Shown piece by piece: positions 7,522-23,196 of a DNA stretch of 23,688 bases; the stretch's first letter is position 1, and the number at the start of each line of letters is the position of its first letter. The stretch lies in IMG/VR virus record IMGVR_UViG_2690316345_000009, one strand, 5' to 3'. Position numbers and translations under genes: made by a program. The notes beneath the pieces are model-generated. The model was given only the letters and a program-made list of their open reading frames with translations. It made no database searches and was not told the DNA's origin. The DNA is from a virus. Taxonomy: Duplodnaviria; Heunggongvirae; Uroviricota; Caudoviricetes.

Positions 7522-8580
7522 TTACGCTCCGGCTTCTGCTGCGGCGGCGCTGAAGTCGCCAATCTGGATGTTTTCCACAAGTGCGGCGCAGCGGTAGTCC
7601 TCAACCACATAGGCTTCGTTAACGGATTCAAAGTTTTCAATCCGGTCACGTTTCGGGTTGTCGATAACCGAACGGCGGCGGGTGTCCTCCTGCCAGTAAA
7701 TGGACAGGTTATCCAGACGGGTGATCAGCAGCGCATTCGGCGGGAAGAACGGCGCACGCACGGCCTGCAGGCCACCCATGCGTTTCTGACTGATGATCAT
7801 ATCGGCAGCCAGTTTTTCACTGTTTTCCTGCTCTTTGTTGACCAGCGGGAAATACTTGTCAGACAGCAGCTCACGACCACAAATCACCACCAGATCGTCA
7901 TCGTCCTGGTAGACCACGTCGATAAGCTCATTGACCGCATCCATCACCACAGCGTCCAGGTTGGCATATTCGCCACCTTTCCCGACTTTCACCGCACCCG
8001 GTGTGGTTTCACCGCCCGAGGTGGTGCTGCCCATGACGTGATCCGGTGCATCCTCACGGATTTTCTGCAGCCAGCCTTTGTTCACATCCTGCAGCAGCGG
8101 GTTTTCGCTACGGTTAGAGGTTTTCGCACGCTTCACGCCGTTAAAGCCGATCATGATGCGGTCCAGTGCCTGACGTTTCACGATGGCGTTACGGATACGC
8201 ACCTGGAAATCCTGAAACTTCGCCCACAGGTCCAGCTTCGCGTAGGTCAGCACCGTGTCAAAGTTGGTCTGTTCGCATTTGTATTCCACATCGACCATCA
8301 GCGTCGGATCGACAGGTTCACGCTCTTTCGCGGTGGTGTCAGTGGTTCCGGCAATGGTGCTGCCAACACCCAGCCCCAGCAGCTGACCGGACTGCTCAGT
8401 CACTGGCGTGACGTTAATCAGCGTCAGGAAAGCGGCGGACTGCTGGATCTGGTCTTCCAGCGTCTGCTGCACAGACGGCTCTACAGTGAACTTGCTGGAC
8501 AGTTCTTCAACTGCCACACCGTTCAGACGTGCCAGTTGCTGCAGGTAAGCGTTAAAAGCAAAGCGGGTATTCTTCTTCAT
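7522..8580 (-). CDS. Major capsid protein (P2 gpN-like)
   Basis: 352-aa ORF MKKNTRFAFNAYLQQLARLNGV...; size and sequence pattern of P2-family major capsid precursor; between scaffold and terminase small subunit. Confidence 0.9.
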   Translation of the reverse strand: MKKNTRFAFNAYLQQLARLNGVAVEELSSKFTVEPSVQQTLEDQIQQSAAFLTLINVTPVTEQSGQLLGLGVGSTIAGTTDTTAKEREPVDPTLMVDVEYKCEQTNFDTVLTYAKLDLWAKFQDFQVRIRNAIVKRQALDRIMIGFNGVKRAKTSNRSENPLLQDVNKGWLQKIREDAPDHVMGSTTSGGETTPGAVKVGKGGEYANLDAVVMDAVNELIDVVYQDDDDLVVICGRELLSDKYFPLVNKEQENSEKLAADMIISQKRMGGLQAVRAPFFPPNALLITRLDNLSIYWQEDTRRRSVIDNPKRDRIENFESVNEAYVVEDYRCAALVENIQIGDFSAAAAEAGA

Positions 8581-8596
8581 CAGGTTTTGTGCTCCA

Positions 8597-9430
8597 TCAG
8601 CAATTGGTCAGAGTGTCAGCGGGGGCGTTACCGCCTGTTGCACGCTGGCGGTAGTCCTGGCGGCTGTCTTCATGACTCAGCTTATTCACCAGTTCGTTAA
8701 AGGCGGTTTGCTGCTCCTGCAGAGCAGTCTCCAGCTCAGACAGGCGTTCTTCCTGCTCAGACAGGGATTTTTCGGTGCGTGCGCTCAGGTTCTGCTGCTC
8801 AGTGGCGACCAGCTCCACGGCCTTATGTACATCAGAGAACCGGGCGTCATCGGACTGCTCTTTTTTGGTAAACAGCGCCGTGACACGGGCAAACAGGGAC
8901 GGCTTGTCCTCCTGGATTTCTTCCAGTTCGATCACCGTTTCCTCTGCAGCGGTAAAAAGATTGGCGGGATTCTGCTTGCGGTTTGCCAGCGGGTTATGGG
9001 CTGCACTGGCGCTGAATGTCAGCATTTCAGTGCCCAGACTGGCAGGGTCATCAGTGGCCGCCAGGCCGACCAGGTAGGCTTTGCCCGTATCAGCAAACTT
9101 CGGGCTGACTTCCATAGAGGTGAATAATTTCTGGCCTTTTTTCACCAGCTCCACCAGGGACTCCGTTGGCTCAACGTCGGCATACAGCGCCATCTTGCCC
9201 GCCAGCGGACCTTCCGTGATTTCTTCAGCAAACAGCGCCGTCACCTTGCCGTAGCGATTAAAGGTGCTGTCCGGCAGATAAGACTTGATGTGCTCAAGGT
9301 TAATCAGCGCGGTATACACCGCCGGGTTGTAGCTGGCTGCCATCTGTTCCAGCCATTCACGCTGGATTTCACGTCCGTCGGTAGTGGCACCTTCCACCCC
9401 GATGCGAAAACGCTTTGCTTTCACTGTCAT
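8597..9430 (-). CDS. Capsid scaffolding protein (P2 gpO-like)
   Basis: 277-aa ORF with N-terminal protease-like region and acidic, coiled-coil-rich C-terminus (EQEERLSELETALQEQQTAFNELV); first gene transcribed leftward from the divergent late-promoter region. Confidence 0.85.
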   Translation of the reverse strand: MTVKAKRFRIGVEGATTDGREIQREWLEQMAASYNPAVYTALINLEHIKSYLPDSTFNRYGKVTALFAEEITEGPLAGKMALYADVEPTESLVELVKKGQKLFTSMEVSPKFADTGKAYLVGLAATDDPASLGTEMLTFSASAAHNPLANRKQNPANLFTAAEETVIELEEIQEDKPSLFARVTALFTKKEQSDDARFSDVHKAVELVATEQQNLSARTEKSLSEQEERLSELETALQEQQTAFNELVNKLSHEDSRQDYRQRATGGNAPADTLTNC

Positions 9431-9493
9431 GAGCCGTGCTCCGTTAGAAAAAACTTACTGGAGCCTTATGGTTGCGGTGATGGGGGCAGTGAA

Positions 9494-9526
9494 ACAATGC
9501 GCGGTATTTGTACCGACAACCACACA
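9494..9526. promoter_or_regulatory. Compound dyad ACA-N12-TGT-N12-ACA in the divergent late-promoter region between scaffold and terminase genes (candidate late-activator site)
   Basis: AACAATGCGCGGTATTTGTACCGACAACCACACA: the TGT-N12-ACA half is centred ~55 nt upstream of the terminase large-subunit ATG, the same spacing as the dyad before the V-like gene. Coordinates approximate. Confidence 0.45.
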
Positions 9527-9572
9527 AACCGCAGGCGGGGAAAGCCTTCATTCAAGGCTGTAGGTTTGTGCC

Positions 9573-11339
9573 ATGAACACCACACTGACACCCGCAGATC
9601 TCGATCCCCGTCGGCAGGCCATGCTGCTGTACTTTCAGGGATACCGCGTAGCCCGCATTGCTGAAATGCTGGGCGAGAAAGTTGCAACCGTTCACAGCTG
9701 GAAAAAACGCGACAAGTGGGGTGACTATGGGCCGCTGGATCAGATGCAGCTCACCACCGCCGCACGCTACTGCCAGCTCATTATGAAGGAGCACAAAGAA
9801 GGGAAAGATTTCAAAGAGATTGACCTGCTGGCGCGCCAGTCGGAGCGCCACGCGCGGATCGGCAAGTTTAACAATGGCGGCAACGAAGCCGACTTAAACC
9901 CTAACGTCGCCAACCGCAACAAAGGCCCGCGCCGTCAGCCGGAAAAGAATGTTTTCACCGATGAGCAGATTGAGAAGCTGGAAGAAATCTTCCATTCCTC
10001 CATGTTCAACTACCAGCGCCACTGGTGGGAAGCCGGAAAAGCTAACCGCATCCGCAACCTGCTGAAGTCACGCCAGATCGGCGCGACCTTTTACTTTGCC
10101 CGTGAAGCCCTGATTGACGCCCTGCTTACCGGACGTAACCAGATTTTCCTTTCTGCCAGTAAGGCACAGGCTCACGTCTTTAAGCAGTACATCATCGACT
10201 TCGCCAAAGAAGTCGAGGTGGAGCTGAAAGGTGATCCGATGGTGCTTCCTAACGGGGCCACGCTGTATTTCCTCGGCACCAATGCCCGCACGGCCCAGAG
10301 TTACCACGGCAACCTGTATCTGGATGAATATTTCTGGATACCGAAATTCCAGGAGCTGCGCAAAGTGGCTTCCGGTATGGCTATTCACAAAAAATGGCGA
10401 CAAACCTATTTTTCCACGCCATCCAGCCTGACACACAGTGCTTATCCGTTCTGGTCCGGTGCGCTGTTTAACCGTGGGCGCAACAAAGCCGATAAGGTGG
10501 ACATCGACCTGTCCCACAACAATCTGGCCCCCGGCCTGCTGTGCGCAGACGGGCAATACCGCCAGATAGTCACCGTGGAAGATGCGGTGCGCGGCGGCTG
10601 TAACCTGTTCGACCTCGACCAGCTACGCATGGAGTACAGCCCGGACGAATACCAGAACCTGCTGATGTGCGAGTTCGTGGACGATCTCGCGTCCGTGTTC
10701 CCGCTCAGCGAACTGCAGGCGTGCATGGTGGACAGTTGGGAAGTCTGGACCGACTTTCATGCACTGGCCCTGCGCCCGTTTGGCTGGCGCGAGGTGTGGA
10801 TCGGTTATGACCCGGCAAAAGGTACGCAGAATGGCGACAGCGCCGGATGCGTGGTGGTGGCACCGCCAGCCGTGCCAGGCGGTAAGTTTCGCATTCTTGA
10901 GCGTCACCAGTGGCGCGGGATGGACTTCCGCGCCCAGGCTGATGCAATCAAAAAACTGACCGAGCAGTACAACGTGACCTACATCGGCATCGACTCGACA
11001 GGTGTCGGCCACGGGGTTTACGAGAACGTGAAAGCGTTTTTTCCAGCCGTCCGGGAGTTTGTCTACAACCCCAACGTTAAAAACGCCCTGGTACTCAAGG
11101 CCTACGACATTATCAGTCACCGTCGTCTGGAGTTTGACGCCGGACACACCGACATAGCGCAGTCATTTATGGCAATCCGTCGCGCCACCACCGCCAGCGG
11201 CAACCGCCCAACCTATGAAGCCAGCCGCAGCGAAGAAGCCAGCCATGCCGATCTGGCCTGGGCAACAATGCACGCACTGTTTAACGAACCGCTGCAGGGC
11301 GAGTCCGCCAATACCAGCAATATTGTGGAGATTTTTTGA
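9573..11339 (+). CDS. Terminase large (ATPase) subunit (P2 gpP-like)
   Basis: 588-aa ORF MNTTLTPADLDPRRQAMLLYFQGYRVARIAEMLGEKVATVHSWKKRDKWGDY...; length and sequence characteristic of P2-family terminase ATPase; followed by the overlapping portal gene. Confidence 0.9.
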   Translation: MNTTLTPADLDPRRQAMLLYFQGYRVARIAEMLGEKVATVHSWKKRDKWGDYGPLDQMQLTTAARYCQLIMKEHKEGKDFKEIDLLARQSERHARIGKFNNGGNEADLNPNVANRNKGPRRQPEKNVFTDEQIEKLEEIFHSSMFNYQRHWWEAGKANRIRNLLKSRQIGATFYFAREALIDALLTGRNQIFLSASKAQAHVFKQYIIDFAKEVEVELKGDPMVLPNGATLYFLGTNARTAQSYHGNLYLDEYFWIPKFQELRKVASGMAIHKKWRQTYFSTPSSLTHSAYPFWSGALFNRGRNKADKVDIDLSHNNLAPGLLCADGQYRQIVTVEDAVRGGCNLFDLDQLRMEYSPDEYQNLLMCEFVDDLASVFPLSELQACMVDSWEVWTDFHALALRPFGWREVWIGYDPAKGTQNGDSAGCVVVAPPAVPGGKFRILERHQWRGMDFRAQADAIKKLTEQYNVTYIGIDSTGVGHGVYENVKAFFPAVREFVYNPNVKNALVLKAYDIISHRRLEFDAGHTDIAQSFMAIRRATTASGNRPTYEASRSEEASHADLAWATMHALFNEPLQGESANTSNIVEIF

Positions 11340-12364
11340 TGGGAAAGAGTAAAAAAAACCGCGTAGCGGCGATGAATCAGATCCAGCATAAAAGCCAGAC
11401 TTCAGCCGAAGCATTCAGCTTCGGCGATCCCGTTCCTGTTCTGGACCGCCGTGAACTGCTGGACTATGTGGAATGCGTACAGACAGATCGATGGTATGAG
11501 CCGCCAGTGAGTTTTGACGGGCTGGCGCGCACCTTTCGCGCCGCCGTGCATCACAGCTCACCGATTGCGGTGAAATGCAATATTCTGACCAGTACCTACA
11601 TCCCTCACCCGCTGCTCAGCCAGCAGGCTTTTTCACGTTTTGTGCAGGACTATCTGGTATTTGGTAACGCCTACCTGGAGAAACGCACGAACCGCTTCGG
11701 TGAAGTTATCGCCCTTGAGCCTGCTCTGGCAAAATACACCCGACGCGGGTTAGACCTGGATACCTACTGGTTTGTGCAATACGGTATGACAACCCAGCCG
11801 TATCAGTTCACGAAAGGCAGCATTTTTCATCTGATGGAACCGGACATCAACCAGGAGATCTACGGCCTGCCAGGTTATCTTTCTGCCATTCCGTCAGCCC
11901 TGCTCAACGAGTCCGCCACGCTGTTCCGCCGGAAGTATTACATTAACGGCAGTCATGCAGGCTTCATCATGTACATGACCGATGCCGCGCAGAACCAGGA
12001 GGATGTGAACAACCTCCGCAATGCGATGAAAAGCGCCAAAGGCCCTGGCAACTTCCGCAACCTGTTTATGTACTCGCCTAACGGCAAAAAGGACGGGCTT
12101 CAGATCATCCCGTTGTCAGAAGTCGCGGCGAAGGATGAATTTCTTAACATCAAGAACGTGAGTCGGGATGACATGATGGCAGCGCATCGTGTGCCGCCAC
12201 AAATGATGGGGATAATGCCTAATAATGTTGGGGGATTTGGGGATGTAGAAAAAGCCAGTAAGGTATTTGTGAAAAATGAATTATTACCATTACAAAAAAG
12301 AATGAAAGAATTTAATCATTGGAGCGGTGAAGAAATTATAAAATTCGAGAGATATCAAATTTAG
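11339..12364 (+). CDS. Portal protein (P2 gpQ-like)
   Basis: Track ORF 11336..12364 begins at a TTG; the adjacent ATG gives MGKSKKNRVAAMNQIQHKSQTSAEAFSFGDPVPV...; ~341 aa, P2 gpQ-like; start overlaps the terminase stop. Confidence 0.9.
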   Translation: MGKSKKNRVAAMNQIQHKSQTSAEAFSFGDPVPVLDRRELLDYVECVQTDRWYEPPVSFDGLARTFRAAVHHSSPIAVKCNILTSTYIPHPLLSQQAFSRFVQDYLVFGNAYLEKRTNRFGEVIALEPALAKYTRRGLDLDTYWFVQYGMTTQPYQFTKGSIFHLMEPDINQEIYGLPGYLSAIPSALLNESATLFRRKYYINGSHAGFIMYMTDAAQNQEDVNNLRNAMKSAKGPGNFRNLFMYSPNGKKDGLQIIPLSEVAAKDEFLNIKNVSRDDMMAAHRVPPQMMGIMPNNVGGFGDVEKASKVFVKNELLPLQKRMKEFNHWSGEEIIKFERYQI

Positions 12365-12370
12365 CAAAGT

Positions 12371-12386
12371 GCCTCTAAAAGAGGCG
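12371..12386. terminator. Short hairpin between the convergent portal and DprA-like genes (possible bidirectional terminator)
   Basis: GCCTCT-AAAA-GAGGC sits exactly between the two stop codons (TAG at ~12362-12364 on plus, TAA at ~12389-12391 on minus). Stem is short and flanking T-runs are weak. Confidence 0.4.
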
Positions 12387-12388
12387 CT

Positions 12389-13363
12389 TTAAATCAAGTC
12401 TAATGTACTCTGTTTCCCTGGCCATTTTAGCTCTAACAAATACTCCCGGGACTCATTTATGATCATAATCACATCATCATAATCCCGTTTTGTTTTTAGC
12501 GCTCTAGCCATGTTGCTCTTAACTAAATCAACTGTTCCCTCACAATTAAGATTAAGCGGATTATTAGGTAGGTGAGGTACAACCGCAAACACTGGTCTTT
12601 TCGCCTTATTTGCAAACTCAGCTTGAGTTATCGTTCCGCTATTTAACGCAGCCTCGATTAAAATTGAACCTGCAGATAATCCAACTTGTATCCGATTTCT
12701 TTGTACAAATGATTGTTTCTGGGCCGGCCGACCCATAGGATACTCAGAAATCCATGCACCACCTTTATCCAGAATCTCTTGAGCAAGTCGACTGTTTTGC
12801 TTCGGCTTAGCCTCCTCAAGACCATGCGCCAAGACAGCAATGGTTTTTCCTTTTGCCTGTAACGTTGCCTTGTGGGCATTCGCATCAGTGCCTATTGCTA
12901 ACCCACTTACAACAATATACCCAGCAGACACTATCTGATTAGTGATCCGCCTCGTTATTTCTTCCCCTGCAGGGGAGGTATCACGGGATCCTACAATTGC
13001 GACACCCGGCAATTCTTTGAGTATACTTTTATCCCCTTTTATGTAGAGAATTGATGGTGGATTAGGAGTAAAAGCTAAACTAAGAGGATAGAATTCAGAC
13101 CCATATGGTATTAGCTCCACACCATTAACATGGTGGTTCTCCAATTCAGCGTTCGCTATTAGAAAATCAGTCTCAGATATTTTATCTTTTAGAAACCCGT
13201 GGCTATTAACCATCTCAGTTAAGTCGCGTATATCACGAATAACATCAAAATCGATAAGCTCAAAGAATTTTAATACACTTTGATCAGATGCTAGCTTCCC
13301 GATTTGAATAGCTAATCCAAGTGTATTTTTTAATTCTTCTGAGTGCACTTTGCTACTCCTCAT
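12389..13363 (-). CDS. DprA/Smf-like (Rossmann, SLOG-type) domain protein; candidate ShosA-like component
   Basis: 324-aa ORF with DprA-family core motifs GVAIVGSRDTSPAGEE...GYIVVSGLAIGTDANAHKATL...IAVLAHGL; overlaps the upstream PRTase gene by ~11 nt on the same strand; AT-rich relative to the phage core. Confidence 0.6.
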   Translation of the reverse strand: MRSSKVHSEELKNTLGLAIQIGKLASDQSVLKFFELIDFDVIRDIRDLTEMVNSHGFLKDKISETDFLIANAELENHHVNGVELIPYGSEFYPLSLAFTPNPPSILYIKGDKSILKELPGVAIVGSRDTSPAGEEITRRITNQIVSAGYIVVSGLAIGTDANAHKATLQAKGKTIAVLAHGLEEAKPKQNSRLAQEILDKGGAWISEYPMGRPAQKQSFVQRNRIQVGLSAGSILIEAALNSGTITQAEFANKAKRPVFAVVPHLPNNPLNLNCEGTVDLVKSNMARALKTKRDYDDVIMIINESREYLLELKWPGKQSTLDLI

Positions 13364-13928
13364 AGTTTGCAGTTTCTAGCAGAGCTAATGGCATTATAAC
13401 TCCAGCTCCTGCAGACTCCAGTAAATAAAAACACGCAGACAAACTACCGCCTGTTGTTTTAACATCATCTAGTAGTAACACATTTCGCCCCATGAGGTTA
13501 CCACCCCTAACTCTGATACTAGACATGTGACCAGTAATTGAGCGATCTCCTCCTTCACGATGTGCGCTAGGAACAGTGCGTGTTCTTTCCAAACAGCAAT
13601 CAACAATGCCCCGACGGTGAACATTTACGATTCGCTCGGCGACCTCAATCAAAGCCGGTGAAATTCTGCCTTCAGTGTGAGACGGGACAACTGCTATCGA
13701 AAAAGGAGACTCAACAAAACGCCCACCGCCACCTCTGATTACTAACCGCCCAACCTTATCTATAGCTAATCGAGAAAAACGGTTAATGGCCCTTTGATGA
13801 TTACGATTATTTTCATCCTTAAAATCCATCATCTGCCTTGATAGTTCATCGCTATGAGGGTTGCGCTCTCCCAAATGCCAGTAGGGGTGATACAAGCCAC
13901 ACGATGTAATACTTACGGGTAAAAGCAT
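13353..13928 (-). CDS. Phosphoribosyltransferase (PRTase) domain protein; candidate ShosT-like component
   Basis: 191-aa ORF containing the type I PRTase PRPP-binding signature VLLLDDVKTTGGSL; first gene of a two-gene cassette with the DprA-like gene; sits between cos and the portal gene. Confidence 0.6.
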   Translation of the reverse strand: MLLPVSITSCGLYHPYWHLGERNPHSDELSRQMMDFKDENNRNHQRAINRFSRLAIDKVGRLVIRGGGGRFVESPFSIAVVPSHTEGRISPALIEVAERIVNVHRRGIVDCCLERTRTVPSAHREGGDRSITGHMSSIRVRGGNLMGRNVLLLDDVKTTGGSLSACFYLLESAGAGVIMPLALLETANYEE

Positions 13929-14045
13929 TCTTTATTCTCATGTAGTCCTAACTCAAACAATGTTAAGCGAAATGATATTTCATAGACAAACACAAATTTA
14001 AGAATAATCTCAATGATCACATTTTTGATTATGAAACAAAGCCAA

Positions 14046-14077
14046 GAGTTAGCGCGCGCTCGTATCCCCGCCACGCC
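14046..14077 (-). other. Candidate cos site (cohesive-end region) of the P2/186 family
   Basis: Minus strand reads GGCGTGGCGGGGATACGAGCGCGCGCT..., matching the first 13 nt of the 186 cohesive end as I recall it (GGCGTGGCGGGGAAAGCAT) and the flanking GCGCGCT of the P2 left end. Lies in a ~490-bp non-coding gap and is oriented so that the portal gene is on the left-end side, as in P2. Coordinates approximate. Confidence 0.6.
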
Positions 14078-14366
14078 TGCCCGCTTTGTGCAATGGTTTT
14101 CATGCAGGTGCATAACATACGAAAAAGTCCGTCACAACTGGCACGCCTGCGTTACAACGCTCCTCAAACGGTCATGCGATCTCATGCAGCATAGCCATGC
14201 ACTTAGGGGAGAAGTGAATGTTCGTAACCAAATGACCGTTTATATATCGAAGCAGAAGAACTAAGAAAGCTTGAGGTGTGCTTTGAACGTTAAACATAGT
14301 ATGTAAATGGTTTATTTTCCCGAGATACTCACTCGGGCCCAATCTGCTTATCGTCTTCATAAAATC

Positions 14367-14396
14367 AAACGTTCAGCCAAGAATATCTGAACGTTT
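14367..14396 (-). terminator. 10-bp-stem hairpin downstream of the HNH gene (candidate terminator of the ATPase-HNH operon)
   Basis: AAACGTTCAG-(10 nt loop)-CTGAACGTTT, ~30 nt past the HNH gene stop; followed on the minus strand by GATTTTATG. Loop is long for a canonical intrinsic terminator. Confidence 0.4.
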
Positions 14397-14422
14397 AGCT
14401 TTTATGGGCAAAACTGTATTAA

Positions 14423-15169
14423 CTAGCGAATTGACGGTAACGTCAGGCTCAAAGATTCATCATGAAGTTCCTGCATATAATCTGACCATAATCCTTGCAT
14501 CTGCATGGTTTCTTTCAGATAAGAATATTCGACTGAACGATGAAGCATTGTTGCTGATACTGCAGAAAAGGGAGATGTTTTCTGACACTCACCTAATATT
14601 GCCTCGACTAGATTCATAAGAATGTTTTTACGTCTAGTACTTGGATTCTCATTAAACCAATTAAGTTTTTCTATTGCGTCATCAATACTGCTATCTATAA
14701 GTTCCCCTGCTTTACAACGCGGTATAAACTTGTGCTCCCTGTGATTAAAGTTTAAAACATCCACTGTTGTTTTACCTAAATCAGTTTTACCTTTAATACG
14801 ATACCCTATCATATAAAGGTGTTCTGACGGTAAATCGTTGCATGGATTTATTATAGGATTGAGTACAACATTATGGCGTTGTTTTGAACCATTACAGTGA
14901 CGGCATGAAGGAAGGAGATTTTCCCATCTAATAACATCATCAGGGAAATTTTTTTTATCCTTAAAATGCTCAATTTCATTATAGGTGCTAGCCTCTTCAA
15001 GCTTGACCTCACAAAATGCACATTTGCCATTACTTAATTTTAGACATGCCGATTTTACTTCCGGATGATGCCAAACAGATGTTCCATTATCTTTAAACTC
15101 CTGAGTTAAAGATAGAAGATCAACACGAGTAAAAAAATCAGGAATAAAGTTCCGTTCAAGCTTAATCAT
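14423..15169 (-). CDS. HNH endonuclease-domain protein; candidate Septu PtuB-like nuclease
   Basis: 248-aa ORF with HNH-type arrangement CAFCEVKL...EIEHFKDKK...WENLLPSCRHCNGSK; start 1 nt after the stop of the upstream ATPase gene; strongly AT-rich. Confidence 0.7.
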   Translation of the reverse strand: MIKLERNFIPDFFTRVDLLSLTQEFKDNGTSVWHHPEVKSACLKLSNGKCAFCEVKLEEASTYNEIEHFKDKKNFPDDVIRWENLLPSCRHCNGSKQRHNVVLNPIINPCNDLPSEHLYMIGYRIKGKTDLGKTTVDVLNFNHREHKFIPRCKAGELIDSSIDDAIEKLNWFNENPSTRRKNILMNLVEAILGECQKTSPFSAVSATMLHRSVEYSYLKETMQMQGLWSDYMQELHDESLSLTLPSIR

Positions 15170-15170
15170 T

Positions 15171-16352
15171 TTACTCTTCTCTCTCTCGAATTGACATCAG
15201 GCTTATTTTAAGAGATTTACGAAGAATACTGTTTTGATGCAATGCCATATCCAAATAATCATAAATTTCTTTCGCCTTGTCGAAATTTTCTTCATCAACA
15301 AAACGTTCGAAATTATCAAGTAGTTCTTGTAGTTTTCTACTGAGAGTGCTTTCCATCCCCATTACATCTAACAAAACCTCTTCAACTGTCCAGGCAGAAT
15401 AACCCAAGCCATTTTCAGGAAGTTCTTTTACTCTCACTGTGCCATCATTATCTGGTACTAACGCAATGATCTGATGTGGTTTTGCATTCTGTACTACATG
15501 TGGGCTGTGAGTTGTGACAATAAATTGTGCTGATGGAAATGTTGTCGTAAGGGCTTCAGTGATTCTTGCCTGCCACTCAGGATGCAAATGAAGCTCAATT
15601 TCATCGATAAGAATCACTCCATCAAATTCTTGGGCGTAAATATCTTTCTCCGGATAACGAAGCTCGATCTCTTTAATAATACCGAGAAGGAGACTCATAC
15701 ATGATTTGAATCCCGAGGACAGATATTCATACCATATTACCCCGGTCGGGGTATTTACAAAAATATCGTAAGATTTAGGATCGACGCGATTGTAAGAAAA
15801 CTGAGGGTTTAAAATTGATATACACTCCCTTGCAAGATGTATATTTTTTATCGTATTAGGACCGTAACCATTATCTACTTTTTCAAACAAATCCCTCTTA
15901 GCAAACCAATCCTTGATATCATGTAAATTGACACCTAAATTAATCTGTTGCGAAACAGCATCATCGGATAGTGATTTATCTGCATTCAACGCCTCAAGAT
16001 GTTTATAATCAAAGTTACGTAATATTTCAAATTTTATTAGTTTCCTCTTATCAAATCCGTTATTATTAAAGTTGTGAATTGTTTCTGTAGGCAAATGAAC
16101 GTTAACATCTAATACTGAATTAAAGTTAACAGAATTATCTTCTATTATTAGACTAACACTTCCTGTTTCAGAAGTGACATTGCGTTTTATTCTATTAGTG
16201 TATCCATGAAGAAAAGGAAAGGAGGCAGCAAGCAAGAGTGTGGATTTTCCAACTCCGTTAGGCCCACATATAATATTCATGTCAGGCCTAAATTTTACGT
16301 ACAGGGACTTTATCCCCCCGATACCGTTTATAGTTAGCTCAGTCAGTTTCAT
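15171..16352 (-). CDS. ABC-type (AAA_15/21-like) ATPase; candidate Septu PtuA-like component
   Basis: Track ORF 15171..16373 starts at a GTG; likely start is the in-frame ATG with upstream AAGGAAA giving MKLTELTINGIGG.... Walker A GPNGVGKST, ABC-signature-like LSSGFK, Walker B VILIDEIELHLHP, H-loop TTHSP. No TOPRIM or other nuclease domain fused. Confidence 0.7.
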   Translation of the reverse strand: MKLTELTINGIGGIKSLYVKFRPDMNIICGPNGVGKSTLLLAASFPFLHGYTNRIKRNVTSETGSVSLIIEDNSVNFNSVLDVNVHLPTETIHNFNNNGFDKRKLIKFEILRNFDYKHLEALNADKSLSDDAVSQQINLGVNLHDIKDWFAKRDLFEKVDNGYGPNTIKNIHLARECISILNPQFSYNRVDPKSYDIFVNTPTGVIWYEYLSSGFKSCMSLLLGIIKEIELRYPEKDIYAQEFDGVILIDEIELHLHPEWQARITEALTTTFPSAQFIVTTHSPHVVQNAKPHQIIALVPDNDGTVRVKELPENGLGYSAWTVEEVLLDVMGMESTLSRKLQELLDNFERFVDEENFDKAKEIYDYLDMALHQNSILRKSLKISLMSIREREE

Positions 16353-16587
16353 ATATTTCCTTGTAATTTCCACTAACCCACATTCAGGATTAGCTAGATA
16401 CTAAGGAACAAGCCAAGTGTTGTAAATAAAAAATCTTATCTTATATTCGAGTTAGAAAAGTATGTTGCACCCGCTGGTTGAGCAAACAGTACAAAGCTGG
16501 CGGCCATTGAAGATCATGACCGCCATACCTAACGCCTCGCTTCACTCGTTGTTCAACCTTGTTCCCTCTGATAGGATCCTATCGGGA

Positions 16588-16809
16588 TCAACGTTTTAAT
16601 GTAACCTGCTGCATTATTTCCATTACTCGCTTTTTGTCTTCATCCAGTTTTAACCCGCTCAGTTCAACACCATTGGCGCTGCCCTTACGGATACGAATTG
16701 CTGTTTTGGGATACAGAGGGCGCAAATTACGGTAGAGCTCGGATTCAAGGGCTTCCAGTGTGGCCTGGCTAATCTTCTGCTCTTTATCGATCATTATTTC
16801 AATGCGCAT
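16588..16809 (-). CDS. dinI: DinI-family protein
   Basis: 73-aa ORF MRIEIMIDKEQKISQATLEALESELYRNLRPLYPKTAIRIRKGSANGVELSGLKLDEDKKRVMEIMQQ, matching the E. coli DinI pattern; downstream of a LexA-box-like operator. Confidence 0.75.
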   Translation of the reverse strand: MRIEIMIDKEQKISQATLEALESELYRNLRPLYPKTAIRIRKGSANGVELSGLKLDEDKKRVMEIMQQVTLKR

Positions 16810-16821
16810 ACAGATTTCCCT

Positions 16822-17010
16822 TTAACTGGTAACGTCCATTGATCGGCTGTATTCATGGCTGCGAATTTTCGCCATCAACTCATCTGTCAGTTCGGACACC
16901 CACTGGATAGCCAGCCGCTTTTCTTCGTCGCTGCACTCACTAGCCGCTACAAGCTTGATAAAAAAATCAATACGCTGGAGCTTCAATGACTCCAAAAGAT
17001 AGTCCTGCAT
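16822..17010 (-). CDS. Small hypothetical protein, first gene of the putative SOS-regulated operon (possible Tum-like antirepressor)
   Basis: Within track ORF 16822..17187 the ATG preceded by AGGAGGGAAG gives a 62-aa product MQDYLLESLKLQRIDFFIKLVAASECSDEEKRLAIQWVSELTDELMAKIRSHEYSRSMDVTS. The Tum analogy is positional only. Confidence 0.4.
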   Translation of the reverse strand: MQDYLLESLKLQRIDFFIKLVAASECSDEEKRLAIQWVSELTDELMAKIRSHEYSRSMDVTS

Positions 17011-17056
17011 CTTCCCTCCTATCATTACACGGATACACAAATACTGTACATATACC

Positions 17057-17076
17057 CACTGTTTATACAAACAGTA
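17057..17076. promoter_or_regulatory. LexA (SOS) box-like operator
   Basis: CACTGTTTATACAAACAGTA contains a perfect CTGT-N8-ACAG palindrome, ~40-50 nt upstream of the small ORF start. A degenerate second box (ACTGTACATATACCCAC) lies just beside it. Coordinates approximate. Confidence 0.6.
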
Positions 17077-17168
17077 TAGTAGGAAAGAAAAAATGTAAAA
17101 CTCTTTTTTGTCAGTCAATTGGATGTACTGACTCCAGTCAATAAAGCACGAAATGTTAAACAGCATCC

Positions 17169-19562
17169 TTAGTACCATCGACGCCATTTGTCATCTTCCT
17201 GCAGCCTCTGTTTACGGTAAAAAATACGTAAACCGGCACCGGATGGAATGCTGCCGCCACGCAGAAGCAAATCAATCTCAGATACACTACCCTCAAACCC
17301 TCTGGCAGTCAGTTCTGCCTCAAGCTGCAGGCGCTGCTGCTCCGAAATACTCTGTATGTATGCTTTTTTTCGCTTCGGTTTTACCAGTCTCAACCTGGCT
17401 GTCAGCTCCCGCCGTTCCTTCTGGCCCATGTTGTGGAGATATTCCTGCAGCTCCTTCTCATCCATGGTTTTAATATCGGGTAAATCCCCCCCTGATTTGT
17501 TCATATTTTCAACAGGGGGACAGTTATTGCCACGAGTCCAAGGGGCGCAAGCGCCCTGGTCGGCTACCGCCTCCTGAACGTCAACGGCTTTACGAACCAT
17601 TTTCCACTTCACTGCATGAGTGCAGATCTTGCCCTCTGCAATGGGTGACCAGATGCCATAAATACGAATGCCGTGATCGCCATAGGCGGTCGGCTCTTCG
17701 TTAATTTCATAAGCAGTTCTGATGAGGTGATATTTGCGGGGAACCAGTACGCCGCCCTGCTTCATGATGTAAGTGGCAAAACAACCAGCATCAGCAGCAG
17801 CCAGGATTGCATCAAGGCGCGGGTTATCCAGTACCGGCGCACCTGCTTTTTTGTCCCCCTGTTGCCTTGCCGCCTGACCAGCCAGCAATCGCAGTTCACG
17901 GTAAGCCTGACGCCCCGGAATGCCAAAGAAGCGGAATTGCTGAACACGATGCAGAGACGCCCAGGCATTAACGTATTCAGCGTTATCACGCAGGGATTTA
18001 CCCGTTTCCTTACTGATCTCGCCAGCCAGACCACGCCCGTCAATATTCTTACTGATATATTTCGCAATGTAGCTTGTCGGCGTTCCTTTGCGCGGGTTTA
18101 TCAGCTCAGACTTAAAGCGTGGCCCCGTGTTATTGCCCAGCTCCTCGCGGTCTTCACGGATGGCAAACTTACGCAACAATGCAGTAATGGCGCGGCGGTC
18201 TTTTTTGCGCATGAAACACAACAGGTGCCAGTGAACTGTGCCGTCATGATGCGGCTCAGCCACCCGCACGCCATACCAGCGCAACCCGGCTTTGTGCATA
18301 GCCTTACGAAATGCAGCAAACATGCCGACCAGATAATCGCTGCTTTGTCTTACTGTCGCGTTGGTCCAGGTCGGGTTTGGCCTGCCGTTATTTAGCGTGG
18401 AATGGAAACGTGACGGACAGGTGATGGTGTAGAAAACGGCGCAGTCACCGCGCATTTCCGCGATAAGCTCCAGACCTTTAACACAGGCCATCATCTCATT
18501 GCGGCGATGCGCAGGGTTGCTGCTGCTGGCGTTTACCACGTCTTCCATATCCAGCGTGTCGCCGTCTTCGTTCACCAGTTCATGAGAACGGAAAAACTCC
18601 AGCGACTTACGGCGCTGCTCACGTTTATGCATCACGGCTTCATAGCTGACATAGGGAGATGCTTTTTTGCTGACCAGGCAAACAGCACGCAACTGCTCTT
18701 CCCGCCATTCGCTACGCATCTTCCATAATTTCCGATACCACCAGTCGGCGCACAACATACGCGCCAGCGAACCCGGAATAAGTTCATAGGGCACGGGTTT
18801 ACGGCGGTTTCTTTTCCGGCGGAGTTGCTCAAACGCAGGCGGTATGACATCCAGTCGCAGGGTTTCCGCCGCCACCTTTTCCCATGTCTTGCGGATTTCT
18901 TCTGGCTTAACGTCATCGGTGGCATACAAATCACCACAAGCGACCTCAAGACACATGCTCATATGCGCTGCTACCAGGGTGGACAGGCGTTTTACCTGAT
19001 CCTGACTCATTTCAGGCAGGATCAGCAGGCCGTCCAGCCCTTCATGGCTTGCCATAAAGCGAAAAGAAGTGGATAGCTGACTGTCGCGTACATGCTCCAG
19101 TCTTTCCAGACATGGCTTAATCGTCTCACGCAAATAGCGGGAATAAGCCTTTGGCCTGCCCAGACTGCTGAAGTATTCAATACGTTGCATCAGCGGCTTG
19201 CTGATATGGGAAGGCAGGGCGTTGACGTCAGCCAGAATGACCATGTCTGGATTAAAACGCTGCTGCTCATGCGCCAGCTTTGCCCGGCTAATGAGCTTAT
19301 CCTGCTCCATTTCGCGCTGGACAGGATCACGGGATTCATTAAAGAAATAACGCTCCCAGACCTGCTCACTCAGTGCCTCGCGGCGCAGTTGTTCCTGCTC
19401 GTTATCGGCAGCATACAGAGTGATCAGGTTTGAAAGTGCAGACTCCGGCGCAAATTCCGCCGGGTCCAGATAAGGGTTAATGGCCTTTTTCGGGCCGTTC
19501 CATGAAAATGATGCAGCGGCCTCGTTAAAGCCGCTAGAGTTGCTCATATCGTCATGACTCAT
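17169..19562 (-). CDS. Replication initiation endonuclease (P2 gpA-like rolling-circle initiator)
   Basis: 797-aa ORF; size and position (between the Dam/TraR operon and the SOS module) match P2/186 gene A; start overlaps the dam stop (ATGA). Confidence 0.85.
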
Positions 19563-20416
19563 ACACGCACCTCGTACACAGCAGAACTATCTACGCCACG
19601 CGAAGGATCAAATCCCACCCAGCAGCGCGCCCCGGAAACAGCAATGATTTCTGTTGCAGATTTACTATCACCAGCTGCCACACCGATGCTGCGTTTTGCC
19701 TTGATGTAGTGGTGAGTAAAATTGCGATACAGCGAACGGATCAGGGATGTGTCACTGTTAGAAACAATGACCGGATGTCCTTCTGATGACCGATGTTCAA
19801 GAACGGATGCCAGGTGATACTGGTCATCTTCAGTGAAACCATCAGTGTGATAGCCGGAAAACGTACCGTCATACGGCGGATCGCAATACACCACATCCCC
19901 CGCCTTCAACATCGCCAGCGTTTCATCAAAGCTGGCGCAGATAAACGTTGCCCGCTGGGCTTTCTCTGCAAATGCGCGAATTTCTTTTTCAGGGAAATAC
20001 GGATTTTTATAATTACCGTAGGGAATGTTGAAATACCCGCTCTTGTTATAGCGACATAACCCACGGTAACCATGACGATTGAGATACAGAAAATATACCG
20101 CTTTCATGAAATCAGTAATTTCAGTGGAGTAATTAAACTCCTGCCTTATGTTGTAATAAGCCACCTCCCTGTTTGCTTCCTCAAATAAAGCTCTGGCACG
20201 AGATATAAACGCCTCACAATCAGCAGCAACCTTTTTATAGAGGTTGATTAAATCAGGATTAATATCCGCAACAAGATAGCTGGGGTAATCCGTCTCCATC
20301 ATCACTGCACAGGAACCCGCGAAAGGTTCAACCAGTCGCGGGCCAGCAGGAAGATGCTTTTTCAGTTCGGACATTATGGCGGTTTTATTTCCCGCCCATT
20401 TCAGGATGGTGCTCAT
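19559..20416 (-). CDS. dam: DNA adenine methyltransferase (Dam-like, N6-adenine, probably GATC-specific)
   Basis: Track ORF 19559..20476; likely start is internal [23 protein letters not shown].... Contains the catalytic DPPY motif ([11 protein letters not shown]) and an N-terminal AdoMet-binding region (EPFAGSCAV). No adjacent restriction endonuclease gene. Confidence 0.85.
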
Positions 20417-20640
20417 ACAGCACCTCCGTTGTAATGTTTGCCTTTCAGCTCTGCGATTTCCTGACAGGTAATGCAAAGCTGCACACCCGGAATGGCACGA
20501 CGGCGTGCTGGCGGAATTGGCGCTTCACACTCAACGCAAAGCACGCGGGACACGCCCGGCGTTTTGGCACGGGCAGCACGGATATGACGTTGGCGTTCTT
20601 CTTCAACGCGCTGCTGGACGAGATCCATTGCATCAGCCAT
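20413..20640 (-). CDS. TraR/DksA-family C4 zinc-finger protein
   Basis: 75-aa ORF with CVECEAPIPPARRRAIPGVQLCITCQ, the characteristic Cys4 finger of TraR/DksA-like phage proteins; translationally coupled to neighbours on both sides. Confidence 0.7.
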   Translation of the reverse strand: MADAMDLVQQRVEEERQRHIRAARAKTPGVSRVLCVECEAPIPPARRRAIPGVQLCITCQEIAELKGKHYNGGAV

Positions 20641-21529: not shown

Positions 21530-21726
21530 TTGGACTTTCTCCGTTTCCTCGTGGTCAATTCAGACAGCAATTCATCTTGTGAATGACATGGATGCCAGCG
21601 TTTTCCATCCTCACCCGTGATCCAGCCGTGACCGTAGTGCATTGCCGGGCTTTGTTTTACCAGCAGCGATGCAAATGATGGTTCTTTCGACAGCATAAGC
21701 ACCTCACAGCAAACCGAATGAAGCAC
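21400..21726 (-). CDS. Hypothetical protein downstream of the CII-like gene (uncertain start)
   Basis: 108-aa ORF starting near the CII-like gene stop; occupies the position where 186 has fil/dhr-type early genes. Cys/His-rich; no motif recognised. Confidence 0.3.
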   Translation of the reverse strand: MLHSVCCEVLMLSKEPSFASLLVKQSPAMHYGHGWITGEDGKRWHPCHSQDELLSELTTRKRRKSKCMRQKVKWFISFVTEGRVIQYLKMICSVAIRHCRAMAVTFSR

Positions 21727-22213
21727 CGAGGCCAGTTACGGTATCAACCGCACTCGCCATCGCAGGGTTAGCCTGTAAACGGGCCTGCAATGAAACAGCA
21801 GCCAGCGCCATCAGTCGTGTTACAGAGTTAATGCTGCTGATGGCATCACGACGACCTGCACTGGTTTTTACATCGCCAGATACCGCACCTGCAGCAACAC
21901 GCCCGATCTCTGCGGTTGCACTCATGACGTAATGTGGCAGTTTCTCTTTTGCCACCTCATTAATCGGCACACATGGCAGGCAGTGAATCTGTGCCAGAAA
22001 ACCATCTACCAGTGTTGAGTCTTCTGTCAGATCAGTAAGCAACCAAATTTCTGGTGCGGTTAATAAATGAGGTTGAGCTGGATTCAGCTTGTTCCGCAGA
22101 ATCTGCACATTCATACCTGCACGTTCTGCCAGTTGCACCAAGTTGTGGCGCAATGCAAATGCACGACAGGCTTCATCAAAATGTGGATGTTTGGAAACTT
22201 GGTAATCAAACAT
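21704..22213 (-). CDS. cII: CII-like transcriptional activator (phage 186 CII family)
   Basis: Track ORF 21704..22222; from the internal start [82 protein letters not shown]... closely resembles 186 CII as I recall it. Confidence 0.8.
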
Positions 22214-22277
22214 GGTTTTCAACTCCGAACTTATCGCAAAATCGAACTCAGCGTCTTATTGCGAAAATAGACGTCTA

Positions 22278-22481: not shown

Positions 22482-22626
22482 AAGGCAACATTCCTTCTAG
22501 ATATGGCTTGTGGCGAGCCGTTGTTTGTCGTGATTAGTAGTGAAGGCTCCAAAAGAACACTTCTGGTTCAACTTTAAGATCGCTTTTGGAATCTGTCAAC
22601 GAATTTTGGATTTCTTTGGAGGACTT
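22482..22626. promoter_or_regulatory. Lysis-lysogeny switch region between divergent Apl-like and CI-like genes
   Basis: ~145-bp gap separating the divergently oriented Apl-like and CI-like starts; by analogy with 186 (pR/pL) and P2 (Pe/Pc) expected to hold face-to-face promoters and operators. Individual promoter hexamers not confidently assigned. Confidence 0.5.
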
Positions 22627-23196
22627 GTGGATTTCAATAGCGGCGGTAAGAAAGCCATAGAACGTTTAGTTGAAGCATATGGGTTCGGTACCCGTCAGGC
22701 TCTCTGTGATCATTTAGGTGTTTCTAAGAGCACCATGGCAACGCGCTATATGCGTGATATTTTTCCAGCAGATTGGGTAATCCAGTGCGCCCTTGAAACG
22801 GGCACCTCGCTTAATTGGCTAACAACAGGGCATGGTTCAAAGCAAGCATCAGCAAATACAAATACTATAGAAGTAGAAAAATATTTATTGTCTGATGGAG
22901 CATTGCAGAAAGACGGTTTTTATATTTTTGATAAGGAATTTCTACCCTCTACGTTTAAAAAACCTTTTGTCATCACAGATAACAATTCTGAATTTATTTG
23001 TGATAAAGAATTTGATGATATACGTGATGGTAAATGGGTAATAAGTATTGATGGCGAAATAACGATCCGTGACATTACTCGTTTACCCGGTGGAAGAATC
23101 TTCGTCGAGGGTGGAAACAGAGCCTTCGAATGCAAGATAGAAGACATTGAAATAATTGGTAAAATTATAAGTTTAACAGTCAAGTATGTTAAATAG
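22627..23196 (+). CDS. cI: CI-like immunity repressor (186 CI family)
   Basis: Track ORF 22540..23196; likely start is the in-frame GTG preceded by GGAGG, giving ~189 aa (186 CI is of similar size). N-terminal HTH-like region (TRQALCDHLGVSKSTMATRYMRD). Call rests mainly on switch synteny. Confidence 0.65.
   Translation: MDFNSGGKKAIERLVEAYGFGTRQALCDHLGVSKSTMATRYMRDIFPADWVIQCALETGTSLNWLTTGHGSKQASANTNTIEVEKYLLSDGALQKDGFYIFDKEFLPSTFKKPFVITDNNSEFICDKEFDDIRDGKWVISIDGEITIRDITRLPGGRIFVEGGNRAFECKIEDIEIIGKIISLTVKYVK

Follow-up and report, generated by a model that had tools for sequence, protein, structure and literature searches.

A probable stand-alone type I Septu (PtuAB) cassette in the P2 cos hotspot

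The window analyzed here, the whole stretch of 23,688 nucleotides of a Caudoviricetes virus (IMG/VR record IMGVR_UViG_2690316345_000009), contains a pair of genes encoding an ABC-type ATPase and an HNH-motif protein close to cos. In the initial annotation, made from the letters alone, the pair was described as a Septu-like (PtuA/PtuB) cassette in the slot where P2 carries old and tin. The question raised by the locus is whether this pair is a Septu system and, if so, how it is related to the Septu systems already characterized. Matches to both family profiles, the nucleotide-binding motifs, the PtuB fold and an adjacent, co-oriented gene pair, which are features of type I Septu, were all found. 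The cassette, which encodes a PtuA ATPase and the HNH nuclease PtuB, is very probably an intact stand-alone type I Septu, and would be accessory (moron) cargo of a P2-like E. coli prophage at the P2 cos hotspot. The features of the region are listed in Table 1.

Table 1. Features of the ptuAB region, in window coordinates
Feature	Coordinates	Strand	Description and evidence
Portal	11336-12364		
ShosTA	12389-13928		Second defence cassette, across cos from ptuAB
cos element	14046..14203	.	Holds the 19-nt cohesive-end core GGCGTGGCGGGGATACGAG at 14059-14077 (-)
Hairpin with U-rich tail	14358..14406	-	17-65 nt past the ptuB stop; RNA fold -18.3 kcal/mol, z -4.5
ptuB	14423..15169	-	248-aa HNH nuclease; PADLOC profile, AlphaFold2 and Foldseek
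ptuA	15171..16352	-	393-aa ABC-type (SMC/Rad50/OLD-like) ATPase; PADLOC, Pfam and PDB matches
Candidate sigma-70 promoter of ptuAB	16398..16426	-	TTTACA, 17 nt spacer, TAGTAT; consensus scan 9/12
GC-rich terminator-like hairpin	16498..16525	-	After the DinI-like gene; terminator scan; RNA fold -20 kcal/mol, z -4.1
gpA	17169-19562		

The ptuAB genes and their products

The two genes are co-oriented and tightly linked, with a single base between the TAA stop codon of ptuA and the ATG of ptuB, and the ORF listing agreed with the initial annotation on this arrangement. In that listing ptuA appears as a 400-aa reading frame from a GTG, 15171..16373(-). The ATG at 16352, which gives the 393-aa protein, is both the RefSeq start and the start of the PADLOC alignment, and AAGGA is located 6-7 nt upstream of it. 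The GC content of the 1.93 kb cassette was 0.36, compared to 0.56 for window positions 1-12364 (phage structural genes) and 0.53 for gpA, in line with the earlier remark that the cassette is more AT-rich than the phage core. No tRNA genes were found. The candidate promoter precedes the ptuA start codon by about 46 nt; promoter-like sites in the region were no commoner than in shuffled sequence, and the assignment is therefore a tentative one. The hairpin behind the DinI-like gene would insulate ptuAB from the upstream early/SOS transcript. The hairpin behind ptuB, the stability of which was equalled in 0 of 200 shuffles, probably terminates transcription of the cassette. The cassette is compact and, flanked by a hairpin on each side, apparently self-contained.

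PtuA matched the PADLOC PtuA profile PDLC00305 with an E-value of 1.2e-151, residues 8-397 of the 400-aa reading frame aligning to profile positions 1-391 of 392. The corresponding match of PtuB to the PADLOC PtuB profile PDLC00342 had an E-value of 1.6e-95 (residues 1-245 on positions 1-245 of 247). As the family profiles span each protein in full, ptuA and ptuB are real genes and not chance reading frames, and the Septu architecture first read from an ATPase next to a separate HNH protein was upheld by the profile search. PtuA and PtuB are identical to RefSeq proteins WP_053887526 and WP_053887525, respectively.

All of the ATPase and HNH motifs quoted in the initial annotation are present and invariant in relatives. 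PtuA has a Walker A motif G30-PNGVGKS-T38 with K36, a signature-like motif L211-S-S-G214, a Walker B motif VILIDE with D250 and E251, and an H-loop TTHSP with H282. These motif residues were invariant across four diverse relatives of 24-47% identity. The best PDB match of PtuA was PtuA 8ee4 (E 9e-23), followed by the PtuA proteins of retrons Ec83 and Ec78, and its C-terminal helical extension could be aligned to that of solved PtuA.

The motifs of PtuB, C50-AFC, EIE-H68-F, N84 and C89-RHC-N93, make up an N-terminal Cys4-type beta-beta-alpha-metal core of C50, C53, H68, N84, C89, C92 and N93. H68, N84, N93 and the Cys4 residues are conserved, and the catalytic residues were invariant across 52 PtuB relatives. 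[quoted passage not shown] The Pfam HNH score was 18.7, under the gathering score of 21.4. The HNH fold expected of the 248-aa protein was found in its AlphaFold2 model (pLDDT 95.5, pTM 0.89): in a Foldseek search of the PDB, PtuB chains took ranks 1-7 (TM 0.5-0.67, E 3e-6 to 3e-3, alignments of 221-253 columns), and Cas9 HNH domains came next.

Comparison with characterized systems and proposed mechanism

The PtuAB system of E. coli ATCC 25922 (8EE4/8EE7/8EEA), as far as the work of Li et al. 2024 is presented in PMC12819146 and PMC13096335, is likewise a two-gene, retron-free system. The ATPase C-lobe and C-terminal extension of the two PtuA proteins align, residues 203-373 here on 272-442 there. 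However, PtuA of the window has 393 aa compared to 465. Between its Walker A and signature motifs it has about 66 aa fewer than 8ee4, in a stretch that could not be aligned by sequence, so that the hexameric assembly of the short PtuA may differ. The likeness of the PtuB proteins is one of fold only. A fold match was found over 253 columns (8eea_G, E 2.6e-3) with 14% identity in the structural alignment, whereas PtuB of the window had no significant sequence match to 8ee7. The ATCC 25922 complex forms a 6:2 'inflammasome-like' assembly, nicks DNA in a manner inhibited by ATP and is triggered by a tail fibre (PMC12819146).

Septu EcB88 of E. coli JBBDAGI-19-0041 (PMC13096335) is also a stand-alone ptuA-ptuB pair. 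The spacing of H75 and N91 in its PtuB equals that of H68 and N84 here, but its PtuA is of the longer type, with K43 and D316 in the places of K36 and D250. Mutants of EcB88 were made, and the Walker A/B and HNH residues were essential. Cleavage of the tRNA-Tyr variable loop with growth retardation, and activity on T5-like and T-even phages, have been described for EcB88 (PMC13096335) and, among the stand-alone systems compared here, for EcB88 only. Every E. coli Septu tested has the longer PtuA with K43/D316, and protection in these systems needs both the ATPase and the HNH nuclease.

The nearest structural matches of PtuB (E 3e-6) were chains from retrons of type I-A (Ec78/Eco7, Ec83; 9NNB, 9KJX, 9E8Z and others). 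The ATPase core and the pairing of a PtuA C-terminal extension with a PtuB C-terminal domain are the same there as here. In contrast, the cassette of the window has no reverse transcriptase (RT), ncRNA, PtuA N-terminal extension or helical flap, and the retron PtuA proteins are about 550 aa long (542-552 aa) compared to 393 aa.

A mechanism can be proposed by analogy with these relatives. PtuA would oligomerize and, by its C-terminal extension, hold PtuB at the C-terminal helical domain of the latter, as in Septu and retron-Eco7 relatives; this interface has been described for Septu relatives in PMC12819146. In the uninfected lysogen the PtuAB complex would be kept quiet, as the ATP-bound ATCC 25922 complex is. 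Infection by a heterologous phage would free the nuclease activity, for which the ATPase motifs and the HNH motif would both be required, and PtuB would then cut nucleic acid and halt phage production at the expense of host growth. The prophage would gain because its lysogen survives competing phages. Judging from the relatives, the likeliest single substrate of the short-PtuA clade, though at slightly less than even odds, would be the tRNA-Tyr variable loop, as for Septu EcB88 and for retron-Eco7 in vivo. DNA, nicked as by ATCC 25922 PtuAB in vitro, is a somewhat less probable substrate, and the smaller remaining share goes to others. Phage protection by the PtuAB of the window, together with its target and trigger, is thus proposed from relatives, and the mechanistic details are less certain than the Septu identity.

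How far the short PtuA departs from these relatives bears on the mechanism. The initial annotation had suggested a divergent subtype, and this stood in part. PtuA is indeed about 70 aa shorter than 8ee4, the difference being located between Walker A and the signature motif, but judged by its profile match the protein is a member of a clade for which PADLOC has a separate Septu model and which Rousset et al. 2022 already labelled Septu. The clade could be a true Septu relative that nevertheless differs in oligomeric state, trigger or nucleic-acid target. Such a difference is rather unlikely, though it deserves weight. It would be consistent with the unalignable deletion described above, with a PtuB that resembles stand-alone PtuB by fold only, and with the differences in ATP sensitivity, assembly, trigger and target that already exist among the known PtuAB systems (PMC13096335, PMC12819146). 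On the other hand, the ATPase core, the C-terminal extension and the two-domain layout of PtuB are all conserved, which favours the same general logic. Slightly less likely again is that the 393-aa PtuA and 248-aa PtuB constitute a mechanistically distinct subtype, with an altered assembly and another phage cue or substrate, perhaps selected to work with the system across cos, here ShosTA.

Alternative identities of the cassette

As an alternative to a stand-alone Septu, the cassette could be an orphan effector pair from a type I-A retron (Ec78/Eco7-like), with the RT and ncRNA elsewhere or lost, and would then be msDNA-regulated or non-functional. The best NCBIfam matches of PtuA (E 2.5e-43) and PtuB (E 2e-14) were to models built for the retron Ec78 type, and retron-associated chains were, as stated, the best structural matches of PtuB. 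However, the NCBIfam scores were far under the equivalog cut-offs of these models, 148.8 compared to 500 for PtuA and 54 compared to 150 for PtuB. PtuA has no counterpart of the N-terminal extension of about 60 aa that binds RT and ncRNA in Ec78; its alignment to Ec83 PtuA pairs residue 4 with residue 64 of the latter. Neither the window nor the annotated near-identical prophages have an RT reading frame. No RVT, TOPRIM or DUF4435 domain was found by Pfam in the cassette and flanking reading frames, and no Rfam family was matched in the whole window at the gathering threshold or in positions 12300-17200 at E<=1. Pfam, Rfam and the RefSeq annotation of the near-identical prophages thus agree with the earlier statement that no RT or TOPRIM is present. 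Distant homologous pairs are RT-free as well: a PtuA of 393-416 aa with a PtuB of 247-248 aa is kept in Clostridium gasigenes, Photobacterium kishitanii and one E. coli contig, the last of which also carries a shufflon gene and is probably a plasmid.

A table in PMC9122126 appears at first to favour the retron alternative. The P2-hotspot system 64 of that table, composed of AAA_21, RVT_1 and HNH_5, is shown with the cluster representative of the window's PtuA. The PtuA sequence of the window is printed there under systems 46, 64 and 105, one of which has an RT, and a single RT sequence is reused for retron types II and VI, so that the printed sequences must be cluster representatives reused across systems. 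System 64 is therefore uninformative on the locus of the window, and only system 105, with an identical PtuB, and the accession-level arrangement lists are reliable. Lacking an RT, an Rfam family and the PtuA N-terminal extension, and missing the equivalog cut-offs, the cassette was not assigned to the type I-A retrons; the orphan reading is very improbable and largely refuted already.

Still less probable is that the cassette belongs to another defence type with an ABC ATPase and a nuclease (Gabija/OLD, PARIS, AbiL- or AAA_21 'AbiEii'-type) and merely resembles Septu. Pfam labels the ATPase as AAA_21 ('putative AbiEii toxin') and AAA_15, both above the gathering score, and P2 carries an OLD ATPase-nuclease in the same slot. 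Against this, the best 25 PADLOC matches of PtuA were all PtuA models with the exception of one retron I-A ATPase, itself a PtuA, and the best matches listed for PtuB comprised, besides PtuB models, only the retron I-A HNH model and PtuA models of HNH-ATPase fusions. Gabija/OLD was rejected, as Pfam found no TOPRIM in either protein and neither type was among the PADLOC best matches listed. PARIS was rejected since the nuclease, encoded by a gene of its own, is of the HNH type with the PtuB fold and no DUF4435 or TOPRIM, and the likeness of PtuA to AriA is limited to weak PDB matches (E 1e-7) over about 48 residues around Walker B.

Least probable of all is that the HNH protein aids the phage's own DNA packaging, or that the two genes form a repair module of the housekeeping RecF/RecN/SMC type. 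In some HK97-like phages the cutting of cos is helped by HNH endonucleases encoded next to cos and terminase, and here some 350 bp separate the cassette from cos; weak N-terminal Pfam and NCBIfam matches to SMC_N, RecF and RecN might suggest the repair module. However, nearly all similar P2-like prophages do without the cassette (4 genomes have it compared to at least 162 with most of the window), P2 itself has none, so that it is dispensable for packaging, and homologous pairs occur outside phages on a Clostridium chromosome and plasmids. The housekeeping assignment, which the initial annotation had named as an outcome that would speak against Septu if the second protein also lacked an HNH fold, was rejected on PtuA scores of 26.2 bits for RecF (cut-off 172) and 25.6 for RecN (cut-off 408), confined to residues 1-45 in the Walker A region; the second protein does have the HNH fold.

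The cos slot, distribution and previous record

The 19-nt cos core occurs once in the window, with 0 occurrences expected by chance, and together with its flanks it aligns at 31 of 39 positions to the annotated cos of P2 and its flanks. Of 5426 E. coli genomes, 1241 carried the cos element, as did 79 phage records. This element forms the slot boundary and the common segment joining the ShosTA module to the PtuAB module. With cos mapped on one side of ptuAB and DinI/gpA on the other, the cassette occupies the old/tin slot of P2, where the initial annotation had placed it. In P2 (NC_001895), old and tin lie in this same slot between gpA and cosR and are likewise lysogenic-conversion cargo for phage exclusion. 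P2 Old is also an ABC-type ATPase-nuclease, but a single-polypeptide ATPase-TOPRIM, and P2 tin is unrelated to ptuAB. Transcription of old/tin is directed away from cos, whereas that of ptuAB is directed towards it. The gpA-gpQ hotspot of P2-like prophages was defined by Rousset et al. 2022 (PMC9122126), and the locus shows its arrangement, in which the cargo beside cos, flanked by replication gene A and portal gene Q, is variable. This cargo varies among prophages that are otherwise 98-99.9% identical.

The cassette DNA was 100% identical in the 4 of 5,426 complete E. coli genomes that hold it, always in the same slot. No match was found to the cassette DNA in a megablast search of sequenced phage genomes, and the phage proteins gave only distant PtuA-like matches of at most 35% identity, for example in Burkholderia phage KS9; the short-PtuA clade is therefore absent from the deposited phage genomes of that collection.

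The cassette is already known. In the supplementary table of PMC9122126, P2-hotspot system 105, an AAA_21/AAA_15/SMC_N protein with HNH_5, is listed as 'Septu (Doron et al., 2018)', and its proteins are identical in sequence to PtuA and PtuB of the window and have the accessions found in the genomes with the 100% identical cassette; the row bears no mark of experimental testing. A literature search by accession (WP_053887526, WP_053887525) returned no paper text, and no experiments on the 393-aa PtuA/248-aa PtuB clade were found in the searchable literature. The finding is thus correct but ordinary: both the system and the prophage hotspot had been catalogued before, and the locus adds a further example, of value mainly as a correct annotation. 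The short-PtuA clade is a reasonable candidate for comparing Septu subtypes.

The only item that the initial annotation had passed over was ShosTA across cos. No exact string match to the ShosT and ShosA sequences of the window was found in the supplement of Rousset et al. 2022, and the DprA+PRTase system tested in PMC9122126 has a longer HAD-PRTase protein. With Septu on one side of cos and ShosTA on the other, the lysogen carries a stack of two defence systems, which is of modest practical value for predicting the phage sensitivity of the strain. Where the same cassette occurs elsewhere, the cargo across cos was AIPR, PIN_12, or a 552-aa protein with a dsDNA nuclease, and in the window it is ShosTA.

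Identity of the ATPase and HNH genes

The two adjoining minus-strand genes, read in the initial annotation as a Septu-like ABC-type ATPase (ptuA) and HNH nuclease (ptuB), were both recovered in the ORF listing. A single base separates the ptuA stop codon from the ptuB ATG, with a purine-rich stretch directly upstream. The ATG of ptuA is the RefSeq start; an AAGGA Shine-Dalgarno sequence lies 6-7 nt 5' of it, and the PADLOC profile alignment starts at the same residue. Every motif quoted in the initial annotation was found. PtuA carries GPNGVGKST as Walker A (K36), VILIDE as Walker B (D250/E251), TTHSP as the H-loop (H282) and, at 211, LSSG, which resembles the ABC signature; PtuB carries C50-AFC, EIE-H68-F, N84 and C89-RHC-N93. 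The cassette is AT-rich relative to the phage core, as had been noticed: its GC content is 0.36, that of window 1-12364 is 0.56 and that of gpA 0.53. It is bracketed by the two RNA hairpins after dinI and ptuB. A sigma-70-like site is present upstream of ptuA, of a kind no commoner here than in shuffled sequence.

Features of the cassette, the cos region and the surrounding prophage (window coordinates)
Feature	Position	Strand	Product	Basis or remark
ptuA ORF	15171..16373	-	400 aa from GTG	ORF listing
ptuA from ATG	16352 (start)	-	393 aa	
ptuB ORF	14423..15169	-	248 aa	ORF listing
Hairpin after dinI	16498-16525			RNA fold, z -4.1
Hairpin after ptuB	14358-14406			RNA fold, z -4.5
shosT	13353-13928	-	191 aa, PRTase-like	PADLOC ShosT E 3.7e-14
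shosA	12389-13363	-	324 aa, DprA/SLOG-like	PADLOC ShosA E 2.8e-70; Pfam DNA_processg_A E 1.4e-60
cos 19-mer GGCGTGGCGGGGATACGAG	14059-14077	-		unique in window, 0 expected by chance
Left-end slot	portal to cos			cargo: ShosTA, AIPR, or 552-aa protein + dsDNA nuclease
Right-end slot	cos to DinI/gpA			cargo: PtuAB, or small hypothetical
Terminase	upstream of portal			Pfam
Portal	11336-12364			Pfam
DinI-like gene	16588-16809			Pfam
gpA replication protein	17169-19562			Pfam
D12-class Dam methylase (N6-adenine DNA methyltransferase)	19559-20476	-		Pfam E 6e-77
CII-like regulator	21704-22222			Pfam
CI repressor	22540-23196			Pfam

The proposed profile search gave full-length Septu matches for both proteins. 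In PADLOC-DB the ATPase was matched end to end by the PtuA model PDLC00305 (E 1.2e-151, profile 1-391 of 392) and the second protein, likewise end to end, by the PtuB model PDLC00342 (E 1.6e-95); nearly all further PADLOC matches listed for the two proteins were other PtuA or PtuB models. A role of the HNH protein in packaging, or of the pair in SMC/RecF-type housekeeping, is rejected, as NCBIfam RecF/RecN matches are confined to the first ~45 residues of the ATPase at ~26 bits, P2 and most relatives lack the cassette, making it dispensable cargo, and the PtuA-PtuB pair is found outside phages too. In Pfam, AAA_21 and AAA_15 scored above threshold for the ATPase, while TOPRIM, DUF4435 and RVT domains were not detected, which bears out the earlier remark that reverse transcriptase and TOPRIM are absent. 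Assignment to Gabija, OLD or PARIS is rejected on this domain content, the PtuA/PtuB profiles being matched and TOPRIM and DUF4435 missing.

The top NCBIfam models were the retron-Ec78-type PtuA and PtuB, with scores far under the equivalog cut-offs. In the PDB, the ATPase was closest in sequence to 8ee4, the PtuA of a stand-alone E. coli system (E 9e-23), and after it to the PtuA of retrons Ec83 and Ec78. PtuB matched retron-type PtuB weakly (E 2e-3) and gave no match to the 8ee7 PtuB in the PDB sequence search. [quoted passage not shown] The ATPase aligns to 8ee4 in two stretches, the Walker A region (residues 2-55 against 2-58) and the C-lobe with the C-terminal extension (203-373 against 272-442). 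The ~70 residues by which it falls short of the 465-aa PtuA are therefore missing from the insertion that separates Walker A from the signature motif.

The HNH fold of PtuB was the single claim left soft by the sequence profiles. The Pfam HNH score was slightly under threshold (18.7 against 21.4 bits). Homologues were aligned and the structure modelled. A database search gave 80 homologues, nearly all of 245-252 aa, from Enterobacterales and, more distantly, Photobacterium and Clostridium. K49, C50, E54, H68, F69, K72, W82, N84, P87, C92, N93 and K96 were invariant in an alignment of 52 sequences; C53 and C89 were Cys in 44-45 of the 52 and Ser in the remainder. The motif is a Cys4-type H-N-N variant of HNH. 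The AlphaFold2 model built from this alignment is of high confidence (mean pLDDT 95.5, pTM 0.89). In it, two strands (65-68 and 85-88) and a helix (90-96) form a small beta-beta-alpha core, to which a helical domain is added at the C-terminus. Foldseek ranks 1-7 against the PDB were PtuB chains only, each over 221-253 columns: retron Ec78/Eco7/I-A PtuB at E 3e-6 to 1e-4, and the PtuB of E. coli Septu, 8eea_G, at E 2.6e-3. The HNH domains of Cas9 came next, with an HNH endonuclease from a phage, at E ~0.5-1. This confirms the HNH fold of the protein and its PtuB-type layout in two domains.

Occurrence and expected mode of action

Four of 5426 complete E. coli genomes contain the 1951-bp cassette at 100% identity. 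It occupies the corresponding slot of a prophage of the same type there, and its genes are annotated 'AAA family ATPase' (WP_053887526) and 'HNH endonuclease' (WP_053887525). Most of the prophage window is present in at least 162 of these genomes, which makes the cassette a rare cargo. Rousset et al. 2022 (PMC9122126) defined the region next to cos, between gpA and gpQ, as a defence hotspot of P2-like prophages. Their supplementary arrangement lists contain both accessions; neither occurs in searchable paper text. In their table of P2-hotspot systems, system 105, 'AAA_21/AAA_15/SMC_N | HNH_5' (30 occurrences), is labelled 'Septu (Doron et al., 2018)', and both of its protein sequences are identical to those of the cassette. 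The cassette is thus already known, as an intact Septu in a documented P2 cos hotspot, and the Septu reading of the initial annotation is supported. In supplementary file 6 the 393-aa PtuA is also printed for system 46 (83 occurrences), with a different, 227-aa TIGR02646-like PtuB, and for system 64 (66 occurrences), listed with RVT_1 (PMC9122126). Representatives of sequence clusters are printed for more than one system in that table, which leaves the PtuB identity and the accession lists as the only decisive evidence there; short-PtuA relatives may also pair with another PtuB type and lie beside retron reverse transcriptases in the same hotspot.

The gene neighbourhoods of three PtuB homologues, picked for distance, were inspected. 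Each was preceded by an overlapping or abutting ATPase of 393-416 aa (AAA_15/AAA_21/SMC_N), in Clostridium gasigenes, in Photobacterium kishitanii next to a prophage integrase, and on an E. coli contig with a shufflon gene; no reverse transcriptase was seen near these three pairs. The ATPase motifs were invariant between the cassette PtuA and the distant relatives at 24-47% identity. By tblastn, the clade was found on plasmids of Pantoea, Klebsiella, Clostridioides, Azospirillum and Bacillus.

In Septu EcB88, defence is lost in Walker A/B and HNH mutants, infected cells cease growing and the tRNA-Tyr variable loop is cleaved upon infection only (PMC13096335). The stand-alone ATCC 25922 PtuAB is described in a literature summary as an inflammasome-like assembly that nicks DNA, less so as ATP rises, and is sensitised by a phage tail fibre (PMC12819146). 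In solved retron complexes, the PtuB C-terminal helical domain is clamped by a pair of PtuA C-terminal extensions (PMC12819146). The cassette proteins retain the ATPase core, an alignable extension and the PtuB helical domain, and the same logic is therefore expected. PtuA would act as scaffold and switch, restraining PtuB until infection, and nucleic-acid cleavage and growth arrest would then ensue. The tentative estimate for the substrate of PtuB leans towards tRNA-Tyr, at just under even odds, because PtuB is closest to retron-type PtuB and both in-vivo studies saw tRNA-Tyr cleavage; nicking of DNA is a plausible second candidate, and some other substrate is less likely. The only alternative left is that the short-PtuA clade may differ from characterised Septu systems in assembly, trigger or target. 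All of the studied E. coli systems have a longer PtuA with K43/D316, compared to K36/D250 in the 393-aa protein.

The cos region and its two slots

The window is a P2-like prophage. The cos 19-mer GGCGTGGCGGGGATACGAG with its flanks aligned to the annotated P2 cohesive end GGCGAGGCGGGGAAAGCAC and flanks at 31/39 positions, and its orientation with respect to Q and A is that of P2. It lies in an element of ~155 bp (14046-14203). Of the 5426 complete E. coli genomes, 1241 carry this element, and so do 79 P2-like phages deposited for Klebsiella, Yersinia and Salmonella. With cos mapped, ptuAB lies between DinI/gpA and cos, where P2 carries old and tin, as had been proposed.

Across cos from ptuAB lies a second defence system, ShosTA (12389-13928, -), absent from the initial annotation. 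Its two genes share 11 nt, and 25 bp lie between the end of the pair and the portal stop codon. E. coli E2348/69 and about 20 further complete genomes have copies ~98.5% identical at this position. Several RefSeq records annotate the DprA-like shosA alone and have no CDS feature for the shosT ORF upstream of it, the DNA being 99% identical to the window (for example NZ_CP182387.1 7054-7629, equivalent to window 13353-13928), which is probably an annotation gap.

Pairwise BLAST gave 99.0% identity between window 11301-14203 and a ShosTA-only prophage, and 99.9% between window 14046-17600 and prophages with ptuAB and another left-hand neighbour, either an AIPR protein or a 552-aa protein with a dsDNA nuclease. 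The stretch shared by these blocks coincides exactly with the cos element. Cargo to the left and right of cos therefore assorts independently, and otherwise near-identical prophages carry different cos-side cargo. These comparisons suggest that cos is the recombination joint for cargo reassortment. As cos lies between both cassettes, the P2 'hotspot' is two slots. ShosTA and PtuAB together were found in none of the 5,426 complete E. coli genomes. Three of the four PtuAB-carrying genomes have AIPR in the left slot, and the arrangement lists of Rousset et al. 2022 add PIN_12 as a partner (PMC9122126). The fourth, strain EC50, has an unnamed pair there (NZ_CP056073.1 14822-17549), a 552-aa hypothetical and a 359-aa 'dsDNA nuclease domain-containing protein', possibly a further defence system. 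The EC50 prophage is degraded; its genes for terminase and tape measure are truncated.

Elsewhere in the window, the D12-class methyltransferase lies in the early operon directly upstream of gpA, and it may serve the prophage in anti-restriction or self-protection. A 121-aa mechanical ORF between gpA and the DinI-like gene (16822-17187, -) is probably over-extended; RefSeq has only a 62-aa hypothetical there (WP_001154444) in identical prophages.
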